This document shows positions 6,001 through 9,000 of a stretch of 32,251 nucleotides of DNA, piece by piece. The position numbers are program-made. The stretch comes from Actinobacteria bacterium UBA7524. Its GTDB lineage: Bacteria; Actinomycetota; Coriobacteriia; Anaerosomatales; UBA912. The DNA lies in NCBI GenBank assembly GCA_002478275.1, contig DLMY01000017.1, positions 1 through 32,251 of the forward strand. The letters run 5' to 3'. Position 1 is the first letter of the stretch, and every line of letters begins with the position of its first letter.

Positions 6001-9000
6001 GAGTCGCTATCCTCCCGAGCACGCCAACTACTGAAGGGACCTCGGCAGACATGCCGGGGTCCCTTGTCATATCCTGTTATGCAGACTGCAGAGTCCTTGT
6101 TGGAAAGACGCCATACGTCTCACCTTGGCGAGCACGAGTAGGATGCGGGGAAGGCGAGCCTCTGTAGTCGGCGGCGTGAACTGAGCAGGCCTGGCGCTTG
6201 AGGCTGGAGTTGTGACGGGCAAGCTGCGTCAGACCTCAAGCCAAGCCATAGTGTGTCATCTCCCCGCGGACTTCAATGATCTCCCGGTTCAGCTGAGCGA
6301 GGTACTCATTCGCCACCTGTGAGAATAGGTCATCGCCAATCTCGGCCAACTCGATCCGAAACTCTCCGTCCTTCATTCGGGCAATCAGCATGTTGAACGC
6401 CGCCTTGACCGCGTTCGGATTATCCTCGGACAAGGGAATCATGATCGCACTCTCTCCCTCAATGCGGATGAAGTGCTTACCTTCAACCTCCACGACGGCG
6501 GCGCTAAGTGTTTCCATAGATTCGCCCTCGCTCTCCAAATGCTTCTTCTCCGCCTTCAAGAGTCCTCATGCTGATTGACTTCCAATCTAGCCGGTCGTTC
6601 TCGTCATCCGAGTTGACTAGGTTGTTCGAAAAGGGATTTCCAGTGTATGTGCGATAACCCTCAGGCCCGTGGTGCCTGTAGACGGAGCTGTAGGGAAGGG
6701 TTCGCACTGCAATATTTGCGTCGTGCGTCGCAATGAATACCTTCTTGCCCGCTCGCGCACGCTCCTTTATGAGCGGAACAATCACGTCACTAATGTACTC
6801 GTTGCCCAGACTTCGCTCCGGCTCATCCAGGATGTACACGTCCTTGTCCGTCCCGAGTTCTTTCTGCAACATCACCATCGAAGCCTCACCGCTTGACGGT
6901 GTGTATTCGGCCCCATCCAGTGAGAAGTACCTCTTGAAGAGCAGAAGTCCGAGCACGGTCCTGATTGCCTCTGCGTCTTCAATCGTGTTGAGGTCGGAGA
7001 CGTGTTGAAACAGGTCGTCTGCGTAGGCGTGCTCAAGAATCATGTTGATGCATTGGGCGAACTTCTTCTGCGGCCCCTTCTTTGTTGCGTGACTGAGACT
7101 GGACAGCCTGCCGTCAGTGACATGTCCAGTCTGGAATTTGTATTCTGTCCGAAGTTCCAGCTCACCCTTGCTGGTTCCGAGACTCCCGATGTGCTCTTTG
7201 ATCGGCGGGATTTCGGTATTGATGCTCTTCACGATCTCGGCAGCAGCGACCTCGATCTTCATGCGATTCAGTGCGTAATCGCGAAAGCCAGTCGTTGTGG
7301 GTTTCGCTGGCGATCCCGTCTTCCGCTCTACCTCTCTTTGGAACGTCCTAATCGCTGAATTCAAGAAATGGATCTCTTTCCAGCCAGCAAAGCTCGCCCA
7401 CGAGCGCTTGGCCAATCGCTCGTGGAGTGCCGACAGGATGCGGGTCAGCTGCTCGTGCTCCTCCTTGTCGAGCTCATCCTTCACGAATTGGTTCGCGGTT
7501 AGGAAGTCGACGAAGTCCCTGGTCTTCTTCAGCGCCTCGTGGACTTCTTTGAACTCGCGTTCGGCCCCGGATTCGCCCTCAAGGCTGATGTCTTTGAGCA
7601 GAATCTTCTTGGCGTTCCTGTTGGTGCTCTTGGCCTCGAAGTAGCCTACGTATTTTCCGAGGCTTGCAACGTCAACCTCGCGGGCAATGCGTAGGGCCTT
7701 GATCTGATCGGTGCAGTAGTTGATCTCGTACGTGTTCAGATTGATCGACAGATTGCTGCCCTTCGTGTCGTAGATCTCGTCCAGCCGGTCGCTCGCTGGC
7801 GCATAGACCTTTGCGTCGACCCCGTTCGCCGTGTAGTGCTTGGCGATAGCCTTCAGAACACAGGACTTGCCTGTCCCCTTTGGACCGAATATGACATTGA
7901 TGTCGTTGAATGCCTTGACGCTCAGCACTGAGTCGTCTCCAAAGGGACAAAGCTCGAGATCCTCGGAGGTCTTCCGGTCAAGCACCGTATTGATCGTGGT
8001 CGGATCCTTCTCGAGCAGCAGGCAGAAATGCTCGAAACTGTCGACAGGAAGTCGGAGATCAGGCAACTCCTGAGCGAGTTCTTCGTATTTCGCCCAGTCA
8101 TGAACATCTGATCCGTGAATGGATGCGTGCCCGTGCGAGATGTAGATTCCGGCTGAGATCGAGTTGGTGACCTCTTTGATGACACGACCTGGATTCTTGG
8201 TCCCTGTCAGCAGCCTCTCAAGAGAGGCCTCTGAAAGACAGGGCATCTTCTGCTGATAGTGGGCAACGTACAGCGGATTGAGGGAATCGAACTTGGCTAG
8301 GACGTCGTCGACTGTGGCCGCGAATTGGTCCGGAGTTGAATCCTTTGTCAGTTCCTCGACCGCCACAGAGAAGTCGCCCGCTGACTTCGGTGAGACAATG
8401 AGCAACAAGTGGCCCCTGAGTTCTCCATCAACAATGTCGAGCTCAATGCCGGGCCACACTTGTGCGTCATGGCCCAAGCCGGTCTCGATTTCCTTGAATT
8501 GCTCCAGGTCGAAGACATTGTGATTGGTGATCGCAATGATACCGACATCCGTGGACAAGACCGTCTTGCAGAAGTCCTCCGGAGCAATATCCCTAGTGGG
8601 CGCATCCCCGGACTTACACTTCCTGGTATGAGCATGTATGTCGATGTTCACGACTGTGTCTTCCTCATATCCATCGTCCACCACCCATGAGGATAGATGC
8701 CAGGAGTACCAACTGGAAAGTCCCGGTTATCCGTGGTGCGCTTTCCAACAAGCGCATCAAGCTGACGCGAGAAGCAGTCGGCTATCCTGAAGGCGCACGG
8801 CGCGCAGCTTATGCGCAACAACGTTAGGCCGTTCGAAGCTCATCCGCTATGGCCTACGTCTCGTGGCGGACACGGATCACCAGGGATCTCAACACCGGGC
8901 TTCACGGACGGATCCGCCACGATCACTCCCTTACTGATGAGGTCGAGAAGCGTTCGGGCGAAATGCTGTGACTCCTCCAACGTGAGATCACATCCCCTTC

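Follow-up and report, generated by a model that had tools for sequence, protein, structure and literature searches.

An attI-type site without an adjacent integrase gene in a tRNA-Glu conjugative element of Coriobacteriia, probably loaded with integron cassettes in trans

Clusters of attC sites (CALINs) and single attC sites (SALINs) without an integron integrase gene are defined by attC alone (PMC4889954; 10.1101/2022.09.11.507474), and their origin has been ascribed to loss of intI, to rearrangement or to insertion at secondary sites (PMC4889954; PMC8618304; 10.1101/2022.09.11.507474). The same 2016 survey by Cury et al. describes attI as unidentified for most integrons and gives no complete integron in Actinobacteria (PMC4889954). 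Mobilisation of CALINs by IntI in trans has been stated for Xanthomonas, where one CALIN is located on a conjugative plasmid (10.1101/2025.06.18.660453); phage-borne CALINs are known as well (PMC9892861), and integron cassettes have been reported to encode defence (10.1101/2024.07.02.601686, 10.1101/2024.07.02.601719).

The locus described here is found on contig C54 of Actinobacteria bacterium UBA7524 (genome G000). The window, i.e. the whole stretch of DNA that was analysed (32,251 nt), covers a large part of a conjugative element (ICE) inserted at a tRNA-Glu gene, in which an attI-type site heads an integron gene cassette. In our judgement this is likely a true attI that has become detached from intI and fixed in the ICE, is loaded in trans by the IntI of the host, and has its cargo spread by conjugation. 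The features of the window are as follows.

1129..1204, + strand: tRNA-Lys(ttt), on the host side
1236..1311, + strand: tRNA-Glu(ttc); its 3' end is the left att core of the ICE, repeated at the far end in 5 relatives
1271..2614, - strand: tyrosine integrase of the ICE, not IntI (PF00589 E 4.5e-21; TIGR02249 28.6 bits versus a cut-off of 265)
4463..5990, + strand: conserved ICE backbone upstream of the dock, an HTH_36 rep-like gene and small ORFs (84-97% identity in 12 other genomes; Pfam)
6024..6076, + strand: left flank of the putative islet with a 14-bp hairpin (6034-6065, -28.6 kcal/mol; blastn)
6077..6105, + strand: attI-type site (site A), crossover G/TT at 6099/6100
6099..8822, + strand: integron gene cassette with inverted genes, 2724 bp, 55% GC versus 66% in the backbone
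6236..6517, - strand: 93-aa acidic ORF, overlapping the end of the large gene
6504..8648, - strand: 714-aa protein, PHP phosphoesterase - coiled coil - ABC/SMC-type ATPase, candidate anti-phage protein
8743..8829, + strand: attC (R'' 8743-8749, L'' 8755-8762, L' 8807-8813, R' 8823-8829)
~8821/8823..8859, + strand: right junction of the putative islet, made up of R', an arm and a decayed tRNA-Val/Ile 3' core (junction profile)
8860..9107, + strand: segment common to 5 of the 7 other type-A copies; the remaining copies rejoin the backbone at ~9107
10123..10659, + strand: RadC/JAB gene, ICE backbone
11803..13323, + strand: MobP3 relaxase (NF041499 173.7 bits, cut-off 150)
13345..15164, + strand: ParA/ParB pair
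18306..21248, + strand: SpaA/thioester adhesin with sortase domain
21380..29376, no strand assigned: second, non-integron cargo region with an NT5C gene, a DNA methylase and PbeA- and PbeC-like genes; relatives have other DNA there
29555..32212, - strand: conjugation genes (NlpC/P60 hydrolase, VirB4-like ATPase), continuing beyond the contig end in the direction of the VirD4 gene on contig C38

The element combines an integrase, which as initially annotated is unlike IntI, with a relaxase, a VirB4-like ATPase and a coupling protein (VirD4 on C38, linked via 6 of 6 relatives), a gene content that suggests a self-transmissible ICE. Direct repeats of the tRNA 3' end flank it on both sides in 5 relatives, and five copies located between two tRNA-Glu repeats on one contig span 39.5-53 kb. 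Copies with 84-97% identity are found in several host families, the closest ones (97%) in different families; relatives of the MobP3 relaxase are labelled Coriobacteriia. The reading frame of the integrase crosses the att core (1271-1311) and stops inside tRNA-Glu, hence the C-terminus of the protein would differ between the integrated and the excised state. A 60-nt repeat (9505-9567 and 10121-10188), kept in ICE copies, precedes an HTH-like gene and radC and is possibly a shared promoter. The stretch 23108-29376 encodes a DNA methylase, MTaX1 and PbeA-/PbeC-like proteins (phosphorothioate-linked Pbe defence), and no dnd genes were seen in the window. Six more copies of the tRNA-Glu 3' junction lie on G000 contigs C7, C29, C34, C41 and C55, and C29, C6 and C8 match the ICE backbone; these may be further or decayed copies of the element. 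In G121, G039 and G130 (L148, L149, L134) the tRNA-Glu 3' end is fused directly to the middle of virD4, which could be the result of an ICE deletion with attL and a similar site within virD4 as its end points.

Integrons are abundant in this actinobacterial lineage: IntI exceeds the TIGR02249 cut-off in 96 of 150 relatives, and a class-wide draw places it in 75 of 95 genomes from 18 families and in none of 105 genomes from seven other families. Among 30 intI loci of relatives, the attI motif that the initial annotation had placed behind intI is indeed found downstream of the gene and in the same direction, not upstream. A usable site exists in 24 loci; the other six lie on short contigs or have none within 1.5 kb. 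A weight matrix was trained on these 24 intI-linked sites only, which had been picked by a pattern widened from the initially annotated motif; left-out scores are 10-43 for 23 of them and -24 for one with a 1-nt insertion. Because of this origin of the training sites an outside check was needed, and it was provided by a covariance model built on sequence only. This model returns 140 sites in 87 of 151 genomes; 60 of them share the direction of an intI located 86-1646 nt ahead (39 of the 60 absent from training). In about one third of the intI loci (L016-L045), intI and attI are separated by ~700 nt with a toxin-antitoxin-like gene pair (read by eye). The conserved motif contains a hexamer resembling a -10 element, 10 to 5 nt ahead of the crossover (alignment); no -35 element was found ahead of the motif in 23 intI-linked sites, and site A has no promoter-like match. 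From this alignment, attI and Pc may overlap in the conserved motif.

With the weight matrix, site A scores 24.5 bits and ranks second of 3.6 million positions in G000, above the maximum of 19.9 in five shuffled genomes; the first rank is taken by position 2085 of contig C38 (31.7 bits). The covariance model assigns E 0.017 to site A. The motif itself is located at 6082-6101 with 2 mismatches, with matches in 0 of 100 shuffles. Across G000 there are two matches at 3 mismatches or fewer (C38:2068 and C54:6082) and five at 4 or fewer, where two had been counted initially. Immediately left of site A lies the hairpin, at a place where many intI-linked sites show extra TTACAC-like boxes (seen by eye, unscored). 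Site A has a GTT crossover followed by a GTTRRRY-like cassette start, resembles the attI of the cognate integrons and, like the C38 site, has an attC downstream and none upstream. An intI gene is not adjacent, and hence the locus is not a complete integron. With one attC at site A in the window and 2-7 in other copies it is a SALIN or CALIN by count, but one that has kept its attI and carries variable cargo.

As had been annotated, two inverted genes and an attC follow site A; the attC is co-oriented and detected with a profile from 6 intI-linked attCs (nhmmer E 3.9e-11). Heuristic attC finders missed it, and a profile HMM was used instead; a plain fold z-score singles out neither this attC nor that on C38 (z -0.3 to -1.2). 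All four boxes (R'', L'', L' and R') are present, and the first 9 nt of the cassette are the exact reverse complement of 8741-8749 at the R'' end (9/9). The cassette recurs with the same boundary: in L192 a copy with 94% identity is located inside an attC array; there the match stops at 6099, with an attC in front of it. The L192 record is labelled Eubacteriales, reflecting either sharing across phyla or a binning error.

Long copies of the ICE backbone are found in 12 other genomes (84-97% identity). Seven of these, the type-A copies, match the window up to 6099-6109 and then diverge, each with a different insert, and rejoin the backbone at ~8826 (5 copies) or 9107 (2 copies). Including the window, the insert starts with GTT in 5 of 8 copies and with GCT in 3, followed by a purine-rich core. 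An attC is detected in 5 of the 8 inserts of the site-A allele and in the other 3 none was detected; the agreement between insert start and R'' in the five is 9/9, 9/9, 8/9, 7/9 and, in a decayed one, 2/9. Many site-A copies are thus decayed (3 of 8 with GCT at the crossover, 3 of 8 without detectable attC). Among the remaining 5 of the 12 copies, a different attI-like sequence occupies this position in 3 and none does in 2; this third attI-like allele scores 18.7 bits in G106, 17.7 in G042 and below 13 in G018, all below the shuffle maximum of 19.9. An all-against-all comparison reveals no cargo in common among 12 site-A inserts, even between copies that are 97% alike. Metagenomes were checked in 4 of 19 runs with matching sequence. 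One contig of run X4 connects 6104 with 8827 through 1968 other letters, while run X7 contains the arrangement of the window at 99%. The depth of the flanks is ~10x or more that of the cassette in X4, X13 and X15 (3 of 4 runs; contigs only, depths that mix organisms). Loose ends at 6101 in X4 and X13 may stem from tRNA-Val islets rather than from the ICE. No empty site A was found among the 8 genome copies or the 4 metagenome runs. The central proposal of the initial annotation, an intI-less attI platform in a conjugative element that holds integron cassettes, is supported by the cargo, which from one base onwards is different in each of the 8 copies with the site-A allele.

We note that no trace of an integron integrase is found at the dock. 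A tblastn search of 42 loci gave no IntI remnant, only matches of 27-29% to ordinary tyrosine recombinases, and intI is absent from the five ICE copies bounded by both tRNA-Glu repeats; the annotation of the C54 site as attI-type without intI beside it agrees with this and with both models. The initial annotation had further invoked the chromosomal integrase of the host, which does not appear in the G000 assembly (83% complete); synteny with the intI flank of G001 and G004 did not locate the corresponding gap. Six of the seven other type-A hosts have one full intI on another contig. No intI was found in G136 (86% complete), G018, G042, G108 and G119, of which G108, G119 and G018 are 96-98% complete, so that docks evidently also persist, and can lie dormant, without IntI. 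G000 has 13 further attCs on C27, C28, C42 and C58, which reveal a host cassette array. Of 25 testable cases, only 3 have their nearest array attC to that of an ICE cassette in the same host; this gives no support for loading in the present host, and the cassette pool is therefore order-wide.

Different inserts at one base could also arise if a complete integron with a long array had entered the ICE and lost intI, and the copies had then shed different cassettes, attI no longer being an entry point. Loss of integrase is named as a source of CALINs by Cury et al. (PMC4889954), and loss of intI with attI kept does occur in this order: an intI fragment is located beside 5 of 58 unlinked sites inspected. 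On contig C38 of G001 (L132:8142-10163, L158), three tandem attI sites each lie behind an intI 3' fragment and are followed by a cassette, with a full intI downstream. The decay of several ICE cassettes fits this history too. Against it, the 12 inserts have no cargo in common and the 42 loci no trace of intI; the precise G/TT ends would still require IntI; and the cassette of the window is intact and recurs in run X7. We regard such a frozen relic as improbable.

A second set of observations concerns attI-type sites elsewhere in the order. Of the 140 covariance-model sites, 80 (in 50 genomes) are not next to intI, with ~8 chance matches expected at the threshold. The 58 of them that were inspected have co-oriented attCs within 4 kb downstream in 37 cases and upstream in 3. 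Where at least 2.5 kb of upstream sequence is free of intI, 30 of 47 sites head attC arrays. The 144 ORFs located upstream at 40 such sites include no conjugation, relaxase or recombinase family; housekeeping genes are frequent among them (ychF, carB, ddl, rpe, ppx, ligD). Whereas intI-less attI sites had been presented as a feature of mobile elements, most of those in the order flank housekeeping genes, and judged from this genomic context, detached attI sites are apparently an order-wide trait that the ICE exploits.

Some detached sites are associated with tRNA genes. At tRNA-Val/Ile loci, 3' cores repeat in tandem and some of the units contain attI or attC; two queries identified no tyrosine recombinase in 7 such loci. 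The left flank of site A is also found 3' of tRNA-Val(cac) ends in other genomes (tRNA annotation), with 79-86% identity over 59-81 nt to G143, G119, G108 and G130:C6 (blastn). A profile from 7 non-ICE tRNA-Val/Ile junctions ranks the right junction first in G000 (28.7 bits, next 18.5). We infer that site A belongs to a small islet, bounded by tRNA-Val-type att sequences, that was absorbed by the ICE, a step that is less sure, as the left core is much decayed. Units of 2.5-4.5 kb with attI and cassettes are also stacked behind the ICE at tRNA-Glu (G124, G050, G132). Up to seven repeats of the tRNA-Glu 3' end follow the ICE (L134, L135, L087; G130:C14 116756-144759; G124:C11 310776-317724), several units containing attI and cassettes, and Gabija and Shedu genes are located there in G124.

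Given such islets, the cassettes might be loaded at chromosomal tRNA loci and whole islets then moved into the ICE, by homologous recombination or a tRNA-type integrase acting across common flanks. Look-alikes of both flanks of site A do exist at tRNA-Val/Ile islets. Moreover, 3 copies have another attI-like allele at the same place and 2 have none, and the site-A allele is found in two separate clades of the backbone tree. But the common flanks are short (~75 and 35 nt, ~80-86% alike), the tRNA cores in the ICE are decayed, and the ICE-specific left flank is kept up to the G in all 7 type-A copies, which puts the swap point at the attI crossover and not at the edge of the islet. Swapping of entire islets is accordingly an unlikely source of the variable cargo. 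Reuse of an ordinary genomic GTT by IntI, with no descent from attI, is very improbable: IntI does place cassettes at numerous sites in genomes, with hot spots and a short GWT consensus (Loot et al., 10.1101/2022.09.11.507474), but the likeness of site A to intI-linked attI spans ~20 nt and beats every shuffle, and the same motif heads the unlinked sites with attCs downstream (37 of 58, only 3 with attCs upstream).

We therefore return to an attI fixed in the ICE and loaded in trans. This reading is backed by the likeness to intI-linked attI, the exact break point, the cassette ends, the intI-free complete copies and the spread over host families. From these we infer IntI as the agent, acting in trans and up to the present day. 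The attI would stem from the integron family native to this order of Coriobacteriia and would have become separated from intI. It was most likely brought in by a small islet with att sequences at its ends, which consisted of tRNA-Val/Ile 3' core, terminator-like hairpin, attI, cassette, arm and core and is now part of the backbone. In a host with an expressed chromosomal IntI, excised cassette circles would recombine with their attC into G/TT; IntI could excise the cassettes again, and conjugation of the ICE would bring the cassette to new hosts.

The ICE would have a second, less constant dock behind virD4 at its other end, represented by contig C38 of G000. There the motif is found at 2068-2087 with 0 mismatches. 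The gene ahead of it is VirD4-like (NF045973 E 4e-29, which for this gapped fragment is below cut-off); after the motif come a 31-aa ORF, a radical-SAM gene and an attC (E 0.002 with the 6-attC profile, 5.5e-10 with a wider profile); the cassette start agrees with R'' at 7 of 9 positions. The annotated arrangement of coupling-protein gene, site, cassette and attC is thereby upheld. A second cassette follows the radical-SAM cassette (L006:3727-3800), and the short ORF that opens it stops after a dozen codons; we take it to resemble the start of an Mrr protein. Where relatives have continuous contigs (6 of 6), the virD4 gene of C38 falls 3.5 kb past the end of C54, hence C38 is most likely the far end of the same ICE. 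The initial annotation had assigned the two intI-less sites to two mobile elements; both sites stand, and most likely they are two docks of a single ICE that has C54 and C38 as its ends, the contig order being derived from the relatives alone. An attI-like site behind virD4 is present in 6 of 18 copies, five of them strong (29-37 bits, several alleles) and one weak, and attCs are found downstream of virD4 in 6 of 6 copies with such a site versus 1 of 12 other copies.

The cargo of the window is a candidate for defence. Relatives of the 714-aa protein number at least 881 (69-80% for the best 120), and the PHP metal ligands, Walker A, signature and Walker B motifs are conserved in 24 aligned sequences. 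A match to PDC-M49A had been annotated and is significant (E 9e-39), but it is confined to two stretches; the protein scores far below the cut-offs for TrlF (80 versus 350) and Ppl (17 versus 1000) and has no full-length score above a curated cut-off. It shares with the PADLOC candidate PDC-M49A, TrlF and Ppl the PHP domain and ATPase motifs; it differs in its distance from the TrlF and Ppl cut-offs and in the partial nature of the PDC-M49A match. An alignment-based structure model (pLDDT 61, pTM 0.38) is predicted to fold like the PHP domains of RNase AM and the heads of AriA/RecN, which gives domain-level hints only; a single-sequence prediction (pLDDT 33) is uninformative. The 93-aa ORF, which also lies behind the homologues in L192 and L193, had no match in family and defence-system profile searches. 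An anti-phage role of the cassette is plausible. Among the cargo of other copies are Shedu (G138), membrane proteins and a split PDC-S53-like gene (G106); no family was found for most of the ORFs, and 8 of 66 cargo ORFs match a defence system (generic radical-SAM excluded).

The locus bears on how CALINs arise and whether they are alive, as those considered here are headed by attI and, in the ICE, cargo changes at one base. It also suggests how cassettes from sedentary integrons could become conjugative when no mobile integron is involved. If true, detached docks would let ICEs carry anti-phage genes between host families without encoding an integron integrase, and the short attI profile makes the proposal testable by standard attI x attC assays. 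More tentatively, and with some doubt on our part, the whole might be seen as a distributed integron: one chromosomal IntI would serve many detached attI docks, some of them in tRNA-targeted islets stacked in tandem, which are adopted by ICEs that sample the order-wide cassette pool, anti-phage genes included, and ferry it between host families without an integron integrase of their own. Many CALINs elsewhere might then be unrecognised attI-headed docks. In a partial literature search we found no description of attI-headed, intI-less docks on ICEs or of integrons in Coriobacteriia.

Several known systems share individual properties with the dock. Treponema-type integrons have attI downstream of intI, and in pdif modules a site on a mobile replicon captures modules, using XerCD and dif sites and not IntI and attC. 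The archaeal integrons described with attI behind intI (10.1101/2022.02.06.479319) resemble the chromosomal integrons of this order (same direction, 60 sites), the hosts here being Coriobacteriia, with an IntI above the cut-off in 96 of 150 relatives. Mobile elements with complete integrons, such as SGI1 with the class 1 integron In104 and other IMEs, likewise move attI and cassettes between hosts (PMC5704250), but they bring their own intI, whereas the ICE dock has none and is not tied to resistance cargo. CIMEs and tandem accretion at tRNA ends, as described in PMC5704250, correspond to the integrase-less units bounded by tRNA 3'-end repeats that are stacked behind the ICE and at tRNA-Val/Ile; the islets differ in containing attI with cassettes, and they consequently rely on two foreign recombinases. 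Like the dock, the engineered 'cassette gatherer' captures modules at a site on a mobile replicon via a recombinase encoded elsewhere, but it is a laboratory construct (10.64898/2026.03.17.712381). CALINs and SALINs, finally, have in common with the ICE dock attC cassettes without a nearby intI; the array of the dock, in contrast, starts with an attI that can be recognised as such, and from copy to copy different cassettes are inserted at the same base.
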